DNA of 55,890 bases from a virus (lineage: Duplodnaviria; Heunggongvirae; Uroviricota; Caudoviricetes), in the IMG/VR virus record IMGVR_UViG_3300044719_000150, one strand, 5' to 3'. The notes below the pieces were generated by a model. The model did not search any database and was not told where the DNA came from. It saw only the letters and a program-made list of their open reading frames with translations. A program made the translations under genes and the position numbers. Positions 171 through 54,496 of this stretch are shown piece by piece. How positions within the stretch are numbered: the stretch's first letter is position 1; every line of letters starts with the position of its first letter.

Positions 171-269
171 CCCAGGCGCAACCTACGTGGTCTTACGAGG
201 GGTTCATGGCCTGGGAAATCTAAGTGCGCGGCGGTTGAGGAGTAGGTTTCGTGCGCCTTTTGGCCGCGC
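171..269 (-). ncRNA. Two tigRNA-like guide units (226-269 and 171-215)
   Basis: Minus strand: GCGCGG-CCA-aaaggcgca-CG-aaac-CTA-ctcctcaac-CG-CCGCGC and CCCAGG-CCA-tgaacccct-CG-taaga-CCA-cgtaggttg-CG-CCTGGG; both closed by perfect 6-bp stems. Confidence 0.85.
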
Positions 270-274
270 GGGGA

Positions 275-286
275 CTAACGTATCAC
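275..286 (-). promoter_or_regulatory. Recurrent motif GTGATACGTTAG (extended -10-like, TGnTACGTT) upstream of guide units
   Basis: Exact motif, 5 nt upstream of unit 226-269; overlaps the TGA stop of 283-588. Confidence 0.7.
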
Positions 287-588
287 GGCTCCGGTTCGTC
301 GTCCAGCTCGGGTCGGATCTCACGCCAGAGAGTTCTGCGGGCATGACCCTTAGCCATGCCCATCAGCCCCTCCAAGAGCTGCTGCTGGAACATCAGGTTC
401 TCACGCAGCGCGGGCAGCACCACGGGGATCTTCTCCCACGGCACCATGAACGAGGTGGGCATGTCCTCGGGCAGCTCGGCGGGGTCTCCCTCGTATACGG
501 CCTCGTAGTCGTTTCCTTCGGTGCGCGCCTGCTCCAGCTCGCGAATGACGCGCTTGTAGTGTTCGATCGAGTCCACAAGGTCACCCAT
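283..588 (-). CDS. Hypothetical protein
   Basis: 101-aa ORF overlapping the end of the Thg1 gene, same strand. Confidence 0.7.
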   Translation of the reverse strand: MGDLVDSIEHYKRVIRELEQARTEGNDYEAVYEGDPAELPEDMPTSFMVPWEKIPVVLPALRENLMFQQQLLEGLMGMAKGHARRTLWREIRPELDDEPEP

Positions 589-1408
589 GGAACAGCTCCG
601 GCCGCCCCAGGTCCCGCAGAACCTCCGGCGGGAAGTACTCCCGCACCGCCGCGTCCACCGTGGACTGTGACGGACCGCCGAATGAGGGCATCTCCGGAAT
701 ACGCCCCACCAGCCAGTTGTCCGGCTGCGCCTCGAACAGCGGCGCGGCGTCGAAGCGCCAGTAGGAGCCGGTGTCCGTGTCCGTGCGGGTGCAGACCTGT
801 CCGTAGCGGGTCGAGCGCGGGTAGTCCTCGAAGATCACCTGGCGGTCGCGCGCCAGCATCGTGATCATCTGCTCGCGGTTCTTGCCGTACAACTCAGAGA
901 CCGAGAAGTGCGCCTGCGCCGCCATCGACACCGCGTTGCGGTACGCGTCGCGCTGGCGCCACACGAAGTAGTTCGCCACCTCCACCGGGTTCGGCAGGGC
1001 GAACACCCGCGCGTCGAACGCCAGGTAGTGCGGCAGGTCATGCAGCTGGCGCTGAATCGCCAGGGACACCGAGGCGATACCGGCGCTTACCGAGGCGATC
1101 TTCTGTGTCCGGCCACCGAACCACGGCTGCTGCGTGAACTCCTCATAGGCGCACACCAACACGCTGATCTCATCGGACTGCTGATAGGCCAGCACCGCAC
1201 CCTGCACCTCGCGGCACAGATCCTGCATCACGTGGCCCATCATCTCCACGAAGCGCATGTCGTACGGTTTGTCCGCCGTCCGCAGCAGGGAGTGCGCCGC
1301 GCGCACGTCCACCCGGACCACGAAGGGCAGGTAGCGCGTCAGGGTGCTGCCGGTCGCGGCCTCGTACGCCTTCATCCGGTCGCCGAGCGCGGTCCCGTCA
1401 CCAGCCAT
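581..1408 (-). CDS. thg1: tRNA-His guanylyltransferase / Thg1-like 3'-5' polymerase
   Basis: DRMKAYE, VVRVD-x-R-x-x-H, YQQSDEISV, FGGRTQKIAS, AFDARVF, NYFVWRQRDAYRNAVS match the Thg1 family; start reassigned to ATG 1408. Confidence 0.9.
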   Translation of the reverse strand: MAGDGTALGDRMKAYEAATGSTLTRYLPFVVRVDVRAAHSLLRTADKPYDMRFVEMMGHVMQDLCREVQGAVLAYQQSDEISVLVCAYEEFTQQPWFGGRTQKIASVSAGIASVSLAIQRQLHDLPHYLAFDARVFALPNPVEVANYFVWRQRDAYRNAVSMAAQAHFSVSELYGKNREQMITMLARDRQVIFEDYPRSTRYGQVCTRTDTDTGSYWRFDAAPLFEAQPDNWLVGRIPEMPSFGGPSQSTVDAAVREYFPPEVLRDLGRPELFHG

Positions 1409-2234
1409 AGGGCAGCACATCCTTCGAACCGGCCATGGTCCGCACGCGCGGCTTCTCACCCCGGTAGCGGATGAAGATCGAACCCGCCATGGTATTCGCG
1501 TCGATAACGCCGTCCCCATCCCTGATGGTGATGCCGCCAGACATCGTCTTGGCGATGACACCGCCGAAGGCCTGCTGGATCTTGATGCTGCCAGCCATGG
1601 TGTTCGCGTAGAGAGTCCCCAAGGACCGCTCCACATGTATCGATCCGGATTCGGTCACGGCACGGACAGACGCGGCGGTGGCGATACGCACGGAGCCGCT
1701 CACGATGTTGGCGGTCACATGCCCGAGGTCTCCCTGAGTTTCGAGGTAGCCCGACGAGCAGTCGAACTTCACTTCCGAGCCGCTTGGCACCAGTGCCGAG
1801 ATGACGTACTTGGGGGCGCGCACGCCGTTCACGGTGGTGACACCGTTCGTGGTCTGGATGCTGACACCGCCGCGACTGGTATAGTTGCCGTCCTCCCGCA
1901 GCCGCAGGATGAGGCGGTCGCCGTCCTGTCGCAACTCCATGGCTTCGAAAGCCGGGTGTCGCGCGTCCAGCGGCTCGCCTTCGATCGTGACGCGCACCGA
2001 GGCGCGGGGCACATCGTCGCCGACCACCACAAGCCCCGTCGCAAGCGTCGAGACGTCGAGCTTGATCGGGCCGGGGAAGTTGGCGGTCAGGACGCGCTCG
2101 TGGGACGACCCGCGCGGCGGCGCGTCTTCCGGCTCGGAGGGCCGGGCATCCTCGGGCTCCTGATGAGGACGAGCATCCTGTGGGCCGAGCGCCGCGCCGA
2201 TGAGCCCTTCGACGAGCTTCAGGAAATCGGTCAA
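1398..2234 (-). CDS. DUF4097-like beta-strand repeat protein
   Basis: Repeated T(M/E)(A/S)G(S/G)I motifs in the C-terminal half; TTG start with AAGGGGG RBS. Confidence 0.7.
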   Translation of the reverse strand: MTDFLKLVEGLIGAALGPQDARPHQEPEDARPSEPEDAPPRGSSHERVLTANFPGPIKLDVSTLATGLVVVGDDVPRASVRVTIEGEPLDARHPAFEAMELRQDGDRLILRLREDGNYTSRGGVSIQTTNGVTTVNGVRAPKYVISALVPSGSEVKFDCSSGYLETQGDLGHVTANIVSGSVRIATAASVRAVTESGSIHVERSLGTLYANTMAGSIKIQQAFGGVIAKTMSGGITIRDGDGVIDANTMAGSIFIRYRGEKPRVRTMAGSKDVLPYGW

Positions 2235-2255
2235 GTTAGCCCCCTTCTCGTTGGC

Positions 2256-2299
2256 GCACGGCGGACATGATCTGGCTTTCGACTTCTTTTTGGCCGCGC
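2256..2299 (-). ncRNA. tigRNA-like guide unit
   Basis: GCGCGG-CCA-aaaagaagt-CG-aaag-CCA-gatcatgtc-CG-CCGTGC; 6-bp stem with one G-U. Confidence 0.85.
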
Positions 2300-2306
2300 T
2301 GCGGGA

Positions 2307-2318
2307 CTAACGTAGCAC
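2307..2318 (-). promoter_or_regulatory. Recurrent motif GTGCTACGTTAG
   Basis: One mismatch to consensus; 7 nt upstream of unit 2256-2299. Confidence 0.7.
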
Positions 2319-53382: not shown

Positions 53383-53384
53383 CC

Positions 53385-53393
53385 TGCTACCAT
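53385..53393 (+). promoter_or_regulatory. Extended -10-like TGCTACCAT upstream of a guide unit
   Basis: TGnTAnnnT, 9 nt before unit 53403. Confidence 0.5.
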
Positions 53394-53402
53394 AGGACTC
53401 CT

Positions 53403-53449
53403 CGCACGGCCAACACCACATCGCAAGCCCAGACTCGGACCGCCGTGCG
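53403..53449 (+). ncRNA. tigRNA-like guide unit
   Basis: CGCACGG-CCA-acaccacat-CG-caagc-CCA-gactcggac-CG-CCGTGCG. Confidence 0.88.
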
Positions 53450-53468
53450 CCCATATTCGGGAGTTTCT

Positions 53469-53849
53469 TTGGACGCCTGGATGCATGCCAAGTCCGCCGC
53501 CCGCAAGTGGGGTGGGGATGCGGAGCAGTACTACGACCTGGAGCGTTTTATCGACTGCTCGAAGGAGGGGAGCGTAGCCGATGTGCGTCACCGGGCGTTG
53601 CTGCACCACAGCGAGGGGATCGGCATCTGCATCGAACGCTTCGGGCCGACGCTGACGATCGAACGCGTCCACGGTGTGCTCCAGGTGCCGGTGCGGCAGA
53701 TCGCGGAGCGGCACATCCTGGAGGACATCGGCTGGATCCCCAGCCACAAGGACTGGCTTGGCGACACCCCCATCAAGGGGTGGATGTCCGGGTCGCAACG
53801 CAGAGAACTTCCCTTGTCCCACATTCTGGCGGGAGAGCAGGCGGCATGA
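53469..53849 (+). CDS. DUF6915-like protein
   Basis: HAKSAARKWGG...RHRALLHHSEG...VPVRQIAERHILEDIGWIPS; TTG start after GGGAG. Confidence 0.75.
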   Translation: MDAWMHAKSAARKWGGDAEQYYDLERFIDCSKEGSVADVRHRALLHHSEGIGICIERFGPTLTIERVHGVLQVPVRQIAERHILEDIGWIPSHKDWLGDTPIKGWMSGSQRRELPLSHILAGEQAA

Positions 53850-54430
53850 CCGACACGCAGGAGCGCAACTTCCTCGGCATCCCCATCTCGGGCGAGATCC
53901 ACTCACACCGAGCGGGCAAGGAGCAGCGCACCAAGGAGGAGTTCGCGGAGATCCTCAAGCCGGTGCTCGACGATCCCACGATCATCGACTTCGGCTGGCG
54001 CCAGTACACCCCGTACTTCAACGACGGCGACACGTGCGTGTTCGGCGCCCACGGCTTGTGGGTGCGCGCGGAGAAGATCGAGGCACCGAAGCCTCCGGAG
54101 CCCGAAGAGGAGCGGTGCCCCGACTGCGACGAGCTGGACTCGCGCTGCACGTGCGACGAGGGCGAAGAGTTCGACTTCGACTACGGCAGCAAGCACAACC
54201 TCGGCAAGGTCACGCACGACGGATGGGGCACCCTGCCGGATGGCTCACGCGGGCCCCTGAACGAGCGGTATGAGGGTCCTGACGAGGAGCGCTACCGCCG
54301 CGTCGAGAAGCTCGCCAGGGCGATCGAGGGCGGCTCGTTCGACCACGCGCTGCTGGAGCTGTTCGGCGACCACGCCACCATCCACGTGCGCAAGACGGGC
54401 ATCACCGTGGAGGAATACTCGCACGACTAA
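53846..54430 (+). CDS. Hypothetical protein coupled to the DUF6915-like gene
   Basis: WRQYTPYFNDGDTCVFG...LFGDHATI...EEYSHD. Confidence 0.75.
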   Translation: MTDTQERNFLGIPISGEIHSHRAGKEQRTKEEFAEILKPVLDDPTIIDFGWRQYTPYFNDGDTCVFGAHGLWVRAEKIEAPKPPEPEEERCPDCDELDSRCTCDEGEEFDFDYGSKHNLGKVTHDGWGTLPDGSRGPLNERYEGPDEERYRRVEKLARAIEGGSFDHALLELFGDHATIHVRKTGITVEEYSHD

Positions 54431-54436
54431 GGGCTG

Positions 54437-54496
54437 CCCTGGGTGATCATTCGATCGAACGAAAGCCCATACCTCAGGCGGTCGCCCAGGGTTTTT
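54437..54496 (+). ncRNA. tigRNA-like unit with an 11-bp stem and TTTTT tail (probable terminator as well)
   Basis: CCCTGGGTGAT-CAT-tcgatcgaa-CG-aaagc-CCA-tacctcagg-CG-GTCGCCCAGGG-TTTTT. Confidence 0.7.

Follow-up and report, generated by a model that had tools for sequence, protein, structure and literature searches.

The DNA analysed here, IMG/VR virus record IMGVR_UViG_3300044719_000150 (hereafter the window), is a 55.9-kb stretch of phage DNA with 66% G+C, in which genes for portal, tape-measure, DnaB, SSB, Lsr2, GroES and Thg1-like proteins were called. No tRNA genes were found across the window, and no close cultured relative of the phage was found. A gene on the reverse strand, at 36068-36955, codes for a 295-amino acid protein that, judged from its sequence and its modelled fold, is TasA, a nuclease-free Tas protein. 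In addition, 28 short guide units with the layout of the stem-loop TIGR-TasA class are spread over the window. An earlier reading, made from the letters of the sequence (the sequence-only reading), had proposed that this TasA uses its guides to silence genes at their ribosome-binding sites (RBSs) and promoters, in the manner of CRISPR interference (CRISPRi).

TasA and its guide units

The tasA product matched TIGR-TasR (PDB 9mty_A) in a phmmer search with an E-value of 1.1e-7, and a weak match to TasH was obtained as well. No Pfam family was detected in the protein at E 0.01 or better, and a RuvC or HNH signal was absent. An AlphaFold2 model, built with 31 homologues (predicted local distance difference test score, pLDDT, of 86; predicted template-modelling score, pTM, of 0.81), was nearly all helical, with a coiled-coil hairpin and a helical domain. 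When this model was used as a query in Foldseek, the top matches were TasR (9mty), followed by TasH (9vzx, 9w03 and 21kl), and then by the IS621 recombinase and Nop5; the E-values for TasR and TasH were 1e-7 to 1e-4. Both features that define a Tas protein, a Nop-type RNA-binding domain and a coiled-coil dimerisation hairpin, were recognized in sequence and fold. In the model only ~17 disordered residues stand ahead of the coiled coil, and because there is neither room nor signal for a RuvC or HNH domain the protein was assigned to the TasA subclass; the sequence-only reading had also taken it to be nuclease-less. The family has >1300 homologues, and proteins ~50% identical to TasA are found in 83 Mycobacterium phage records, including Bethlehem, as well as in Gordonia, Arthrobacter and Rhodococcus phages, where they are annotated as hypothetical protein, transposase or DNA-binding protein. 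Residues H241, C245, C248 and H265, which form a His/Cys cluster in the region of residues 241-267, inside the Nop-type domain, are invariant in the 31 homologues; this cluster is probably a zinc site.

The guide units have the form stem-CCA-N9-CG-N4/5-CCA-N9-CG-stem, i.e., they carry two 9-nt spacers (A and B), each with CCA (box C) before it and CG (box D-like) after it. In the published ParTasR tigRNA, box C is CCA and box D is UG. A strict version of the pattern gave 19 matches in the window, and a relaxed version gave 34, compared with ~7.5 in simulated sequence. A covariance model trained on 24 units recovered them and added weaker ones. The scan and the model together yielded 27 units, and with the unit at 37015-37046 the total is 28, the same number of guides as in the sequence-only reading. 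All 12 of the 18-mers quoted there as targets correspond to spacer A plus the reverse complement of spacer B of units at the expected places. The units lie at ~17 places over at least 54 kb of the window, on both strands, and 27 of the 28 are in gaps between open reading frame (ORF) calls, the sole exception being the doubtful unit at 20423. The features are listed below, and units are named in the text by their first coordinate.

177-286, reverse strand: two units, 232-263 and 177-209, behind GTGATACGTTAG at 275-286
2262-2318, reverse strand: unit 2262-2293, behind GTGCTACGTTAG at 2307-2318
3267-3671, reverse strand: units 3267-3298, 3606-3637 and 3640-3671
4382-4414, reverse strand: degenerate unit with a CTC box and a 10-nt spacer A (25.6 bits)
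5698-5750, reverse strand: unit 5698-5729, behind GTGATACGTTAG at 5739-5750; points away from the portal gene
17759-17868, reverse strand: unit 17759-17790 and promoter-like motif 17857-17868, antisense, between rightward virion genes
20423-20453, reverse strand: doubtful unit inside a predicted ORF (17.8 bits)
28253-28309, reverse strand: unit 28253-28284 and promoter-like motif 28298-28309, antisense, between virion genes
35200-35364, reverse strand: four tandem units (35315, 35277, 35238 and 35200) with 6-nt edges in common, behind promoter-like GTGATACGTTAG at 35353-35364
36068-36955, reverse strand: tasA, 295-amino acid Tas protein with a coiled-coil hairpin and a Nop-type C-terminal domain; nuclease domain not detectable
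36981-37079, reverse strand: three compressed units directly upstream of tasA
36981-37011, reverse strand: the first of these, with an 8-nt spacer A
37015-37046, reverse strand: the second, with one CA box
37047-37079, reverse strand: the third, with spacer A TACCTCCTT; one of two Shine-Dalgarno (SD)-like guides
43745-43887, forward strand: three units, 43745-43776, 43801-43833 and 43856-43887; the minimum free energy (MFE) fold shows all three terminal stems
43745-43776, forward strand: the first of these, with spacer B TTCCTCCTT; the other SD-like guide
44660-44744, forward strand: two weaker units, 44660-44691 (CTA and GG boxes) and 44713-44744 (CTA box)
47927-47958, reverse strand: guide unit
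49674-49734, reverse strand: unit 49674-49706 (10-nt spacer A), behind GTGCTACGTTAA at 49723-49734
50214-51233: gene without a Pfam family at E 0.01 or better, with guide units on both sides (49674 and 51724)
51724-51756, forward strand: guide unit with the top model score (45.9 bits)
53410-53442, forward strand: guide unit
54447-54480, forward strand: guide unit whose stem is 12 bp long; a box reads TCA, and spacer A has 10 nt

TasA loci have been reported to be paired with parB-like genes (PMC12045711).

The 7-bp terminal stems of the units covary. In the alignment 88% of the cells are paired; shuffling lowers this to 57% and sliding the partner to 30-61%. Changes on both sides of the stem are seen at six of the seven pairs, in a test that is not fully independent, because units were partly picked for possessing a stem. 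The overall folding energy of the units is no better than that of shuffles. The variable palindromic flanks that form the terminal stem are those that define the stem-loop class, and the dual short spacers, with box C before and box D (here CG) after each, are those that define TIGR-Tas. The array at 35200-35346 has a period of 38-39 nt, and its edges (CCGCAG, CTGTGG, CCGCAG, CTGCGG and CCGCAA) close one unit and open the next; it stands between the stem-loop and the dual-repeat type of array.

Many units lie behind a promoter-like motif. The sequence GTGATACGTTAG, which is extended -10-like (TGnTAnnnT), has 12 copies with up to 2 mismatches in the window, where 1.3 are expected (275-286, 2307-2318, 4330-4341, 5739-5750, 17857-17868, 28298-28309, 35353-35364, 39800-39811, 43470-43481, 43727-43738, 49723-49734 and 50191-50202). 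Eleven units have a copy in the same orientation no more than 120 nt upstream, including the antisense units 17759 and 28253, and the remaining units are co-oriented with adjacent genes. The motif copies are an indirect hint that these units may be transcribed. An inverted pair of copies (43470 and 43727) brackets a small ORF at 43515-43730.

When the covariance model was applied to related viral loci from IMG/VR, 435 units were found in 79 loci, nearly all on the tas strand, adjoining or within tas, and ~1 kb from tas at most. The closest relatives (L001 and L002) carry such tas-linked units too, and in the closest of all, a 27-kb fragment with a Tas 75% identical, the units are likewise dispersed. 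The published stem-loop TIGR-TasA class has the same unit layout. Because units and tas are linked in the relatives, and the published boxes and the layout of the class match, membership of the window system in the stem-loop TIGR-TasA class is well supported.

Relatives with a Tas 72-75% identical have boxes alike and spacers that are wholly different. No guide is common to the window and its relatives, the nearest pair differing at 4 of 18 positions, and near-identical mycobacteriophage loci have differing guide sets. On this comparison, guides appear to turn over quickly among related phages. Such turnover fits variable targets, as mobile elements or variable host loci would be, better than conserved host housekeeping promoters. 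In Mycobacterium cluster-A-type phages (L018-L029, e.g., Bethlehem and Atkinbua), which have 2-4 guides each, the guide sets are mosaic, and spacer A TATCTCCGG is paired with three different spacers B.

The window system shares with the known stem-loop TIGR-TasA systems (Peromyscus gut PlTasA, Bifidobacterium longum BlTasA and Minisyncoccota MbTasA; PMC12045711; bioRxiv 10.64898/2026.09.09.750476; bioRxiv 10.64898/2026.08.11.744272) a solo Nop-domain coiled-coil protein without a nuclease, variable palindromic stems, and units upstream and downstream of tas in flexible positions. Unlike theirs, the window units, which are known from sequence alone, occupy ~17 places on the two strands, over a stretch of at least 54 kb; many have promoter-like motifs of their own, some are antisense in the virion operon, their box D reads CG, and one array shares its edges. 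This dispersed, promoter-equipped layout is unusual for TIGR-TasA. The dual-repeat TasR and TasH nucleases (TaTasR, PDB 9mty; SpTasH, PDB 9vzx), which gave the best sequence and structure matches, follow the same box C, spacer and box D logic, but have an N-terminal RuvC or HNH domain and cut DNA. Archaeal box C/D small RNAs with Nop5 are also alike in their terminal stem, their two guides each followed by box D, their Nop-domain dimer and their dispersed genes; the archaeal ribonucleoproteins, however, methylate RNA with fibrillarin and L7Ae, whereas published Tas complexes bind DNA. With dCas9/CRISPRi and the nuclease-free CRISPR systems (type IV, type V-M and Cas12k) the likeness is RNA-guided DNA binding without cutting, which can block transcription, but the Tas system has an unrelated fold, no protospacer-adjacent motif, two 9-nt guide halves that would read opposite strands, and no adaptation genes.

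Sequence of the predicted targets

According to the sequence-only reading, the predicted targets resemble SD sequences, start-codon contexts and -10 boxes. The corresponding motifs were counted in 27 targets and compared with three nulls, namely within-spacer shuffles, spacer-pool letters and random window 18-mers. The P values below are nominal, and AAGGAGG was picked after inspection, without correction for that choice.

AAGGAGG: observed 2 of 27, expected 0.05-0.10, P 0.001-0.004
AGGAGG: observed 2, expected 0.20-0.30, P 0.02-0.03
GGAGG: observed 3, expected 0.9-1.3, P 0.05-0.14
Any 5-mer of SD: observed 6, expected 2.5-3.2, P 0.04-0.08
4-mer SD cores: observed 10, expected 7.1-8.5, P 0.15-0.33
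ATG: observed 12, expected ~10 under the spacer nulls (P 0.27-0.36) and 7.5 for window 18-mers (P 0.05)
TAnnnT: observed 4, expected ~7 under the spacer nulls (P 0.95) and 1.2 for window 18-mers (P 0.03)

The nominal excess of TAnnnT and ATG over window 18-mers is of the kind that a lower G+C content of the spacers would yield. The sequence-only reading had itself regarded its TAnnnT count as unconvincing when taken alone, and under the spacer nulls TAnnnT is not enriched. Only the full AAGGAGG string stands out; the other motif classes were at or near chance when compared with controls of spacer composition. The argument of that reading that two AAGGAGG hits are unlikely by chance agrees with the nominal P value, but the motif was chosen post hoc and the clade as a whole has no SD enrichment apart from a marginal CCTCCT count.

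The latter was revealed by a set of 455 unique clade guides (from L001-L081, G002, G003, G005, G006 and the window), compared with a null that keeps the per-position composition of the spacers. CCTCC was found 9 times versus 7.6 expected, and GGAGG 5 times versus 5.4. CCTCCT was found 4 times versus 1.1 expected, which is marginal (z 2.6), and two of these four are the window's own. TAnnnT was depleted (41 versus 81), and so was the TA dinucleotide. Spacer G+C is 52%, compared with 66% in coding and 63% in intergenic phage DNA, and spacers are below their locus in 59 of 69 related loci. This low G+C fits regulatory DNA, and it equally fits easier melting of the target.

In both AAGGAGG guides the RNA is anti-SD in sense, and the site, read in the coding direction, has the SD at its outer 3′ end. 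Three further spacers, of which two belong to the window and one to a relative, open with NNCCTC. Apart from these motifs, both spacers are A/T-rich at position 1, and G+C is high at positions 3 and 6. The spacers also show a period-3 G+C autocorrelation and a strong TA depletion, as natural coding DNA does; a non-coding control showed about half of the period-3 signal, and since this control was not clean no conclusion was drawn from the signal. We conclude that: i) the guide set as a whole has no demonstrable preference for SD, start-codon or -10 sequences, ii) the regulatory look of the predicted targets rests on two guides, and iii) these two AAGGAGG-type guides may be real RBS guides, or may be chance.

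Target searches and target geometry

Targets were sought within the window with the 18-mers formed by A and the reverse complement of B. None was found with up to 3 mismatches (the best had 4), as with swapped-partner controls, and in the reverse A/B order one 3-mismatch match was obtained, which fell on its own unit. When the search was extended to 1.38 Mb of related viral loci, no match with up to 1 mismatch was observed, nor was one observed when gaps of -1 to +6 and both orders were allowed against the window plus 1.7 Mb of related phage sequence. One partial own-genome match was seen: the guide of unit 37047 matches 33653-33670 at 14 of 18 positions, 13 of them contiguous and including all 9 of spacer A, over AAGGAGGTA ahead of an ATG at 33671. 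This site comes after a terminator and a TTGACA box, and its match is within chance, given that 31% of the controls reach 4 mismatches.

The two SD-like 18-mers, GGTTCTACTAAGGAGGAA and TACCTCCTTGCTGATGTC, had no exact match in IMG/VR. GGTTCTACTAAGGAGGAA, the most SD-like, had 7 exact matches in 185,579 species genomes (Clostridia, Bacteroidota, Acidobacteriota and one archaeon), with none in Actinobacteria, and TACCTCCTTGCTGATGTC had 21 exact metagenome matches, all in contigs of 36-60% G+C. An ATG at RBS spacing follows the metagenome matches of GACATCAGCAAGGAGGTA in 4 of 21 cases, which shows only that the string is RBS-like. Taken together, these genome and metagenome matches look like chance. 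A BLAST search of six further window guides against 50,697 phage records gave no 18/18 match, and two guides of mycobacteriophage relatives gave none either. The guides of the complete relatives G002 and G003 (130 and 83 kb), the provirus G005 and the fragment G006 had self and cross matches no better than swapped-partner controls, which speaks against self-regulation as the general role in the clade. The sequence-only reading had asked for its 18-mers to be searched against hosts and phages; across the window, related phages, phage records, IMG/VR, genomes and metagenomes, no host or phage target above chance emerged.

In solved Tas structures, box C and the first paired spacer nucleotide are at the DNA unwinding junction. 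For this reason the 3′ ends of the spacers meet in the middle of the site, and the order of A plus the reverse complement of B fits. In the clade guides, spacers A and B end in complementary nucleotides in 198 of 455 cases versus 118 expected, and the G+C states of A and B positions correlate along anti-diagonals three apart. These statistics fit, though indirectly, A and the reverse complement of B on one strand of a single predicted site. They suggest putative natural sites of 17 bp, in which the central base pair would be read by both spacers; a 2-bp gap is less likely. The complementarity of the last nucleotides ranges from 0 to 86% per locus, and it is absent in the window (7 of 27), so that the contiguous 18-mer rule may hold there.

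One match across phages was observed. A well-formed guide of G003 (G003:C1:22772-22803; IMG/VR 3300044782_000021, a complete 83-kb phage) equals window positions 46314-46330 at 17 of 17 positions if a 1-bp overlap is allowed. The site is inside the gene at 45795-46385, ~57 nt upstream of ssb, and the chance expectation is ~0.04. The same 17-mer is also present in three unrelated IMG/VR viral contigs. The match could be an example of inter-phage targeting, and we treat it as a lead, not a finding.

Role of the TasA system

The account that we favour is that the window comes from a large phage that infects high-G+C bacteria and has a dispersed stem-loop type TIGR-TasA system, i.e., one tasA gene and ~28 guide units spread through intergenic gaps, some of them behind the phage's promoter-like motif, with guides to external sites. 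The terminal stem into which each unit folds displays two 9-nt spacers. By analogy with solved relatives, a TasA dimer would hold the RNA, the two spacers would pair with opposite DNA strands, A on one and B on the adjoining part of the other, and the complex would occupy a site of ~18 bp without cutting it and could thereby block transcription. The negative searches suggest that the sites are not in the window part of the phage genome but belong to the host or to competing mobile elements. Taken as a whole, we hold this account to be probable, but far from certain. Several points weigh against it. Box D is CG here and UG in the published RNA, and several units are degenerate (4382, 20423, 36981 and 44660). 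No target was identified in any search, and binding to external DNA is inferred. The self-target search was confined to the 55.9-kb window, which is only part of the phage genome. The clade statistics hint that the true target geometry may differ from a plain contiguous 18-mer, and the scans of public collections, which used the contiguous form alone, could miss gapped or overlapping targets.

The proposal of the sequence-only reading is a special case of external targeting, in which guides are aimed at the 5′ regulatory DNA of genes of the host or of rival phages (SD and start regions, -10 boxes) and TasA acts as a natural CRISPRi on gene starts. It draws on the AAGGAGG of two guides, with its low nominal P value and with the SD at the 3′ outer end in both, on the three spacers that start with NNCCTC, on the low spacer G+C, and on the capacity of GACATCAGCAAGGAGGTA to act as an RBS. 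We consider it unlikely, since the motif was chosen post hoc, the shorter SD cores and ATG are near chance, TAnnnT is not enriched over spacer-composition controls, and the 455 clade guides have no SD enrichment except for the marginal CCTCCT and are depleted in TAnnnT and TA. Furthermore, the SD-like 18-mers have no IMG/VR matches, their other matches are scattered, with none in Actinobacteria or in contigs of >60% G+C, and the low spacer G+C could equally mean easier DNA melting. That the guides of units 37047 (TACCTCCTT) and 43745 (TTCCTCCTT) are in fact anti-SD guides, steering TasA to the DNA of strong RBSs in host or rival-phage genes, is in our estimate slightly less likely still. If the guides acted instead on the phage's own DNA beyond the window, timing gene expression, replication or packaging, the partial coverage of the phage genome would accommodate the negative searches, and the 14/18 match of unit 37047 over the SD of the gene starting near 33671 could be cited. 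Such self-regulation is improbable, because there was no match with up to 3 mismatches in 55.9 kb, the guides of relatives behave like swapped controls on their own genomes, and the 14/18 match is at chance level.

The SD-like spacers might also act on RNA, by anti-SD pairing with the RBSs of mRNAs in cis or in trans. Both TACCTCCTT and TTCCTCCTT are anti-SD in sense on the transcribed strand of their unit, they resemble the 3′ end of 16S rRNA, and an AAGGAGG RBS lies 150 nt downstream of unit 43745. Published Tas complexes, however, bind double-stranded DNA, and the tasA RBS, AAGGGAG, is a poor partner for the spacer. Pairing in cis of unit 43745 with the RBS of gene 43935 was not present in the MFE fold of 43735-43945, which counts against action on RNA, and we regard such action as very improbable. 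Finally, the units could be a phage-specific intergenic hairpin repeat, for instance a terminator or the site of another protein, and not guides at all. They are indeed hairpins in intergenic gaps, some right after stop codons, with a folding energy like that of shuffles. But the twofold CCA-N9-CG of the loop, in which the 9-mers vary, is like that of tigRNAs, tas accompanies the units in 79 loci, and many units have their own upstream promoter-like motif, some being antisense to the operon; this explanation is hardly credible.

Repression of a reporter and of a chromosomal gene by a nuclease-free TasA and a dead TasR has been demonstrated in E. coli, and electrophoretic mobility shift assays revealed binding to the target DNA (bioRxiv 10.64898/2026.09.09.750476). 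Host silencing, suppression of rival elements and control of the viral life cycle have been suggested as roles of TasA (bioRxiv 10.64898/2026.09.09.750476), and natural TIGR-Tas targets are not yet assignable according to both the 2025 discovery paper (PMC12045711) and the 2026 preprint (bioRxiv 10.64898/2026.09.09.750476). Because repression in reporter assays is already published, repression by TasA is a plausible mechanism, but not a new one. The CRISPRi-like silencing of the sequence-only reading stands to the extent that TasA and guides are present and that repression is known for another TasA, but gene-start targets were not demonstrated and no target was found. The silencing mechanism is the current working model, and targeting of gene starts is the addition of that reading, not demonstrated.

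If the RBS guides were real, they would give the first natural targets of a nuclease-free TIGR system, together with its first natural role, the silencing of gene starts by a lytic phage. Phage guides demonstrably placed on host RBSs or promoters would settle the purpose of nuclease-free TasA, and the present evidence falls short of this. The analysis provides a clean guide list for the window phage, searches whose negative outcome narrows the possible location of the targets, and a pointer to cultured actinophages of the same Tas clade. There are ~90 of these, mostly phages of Mycobacterium smegmatis, and in them the question of the targets is answerable at the bench.

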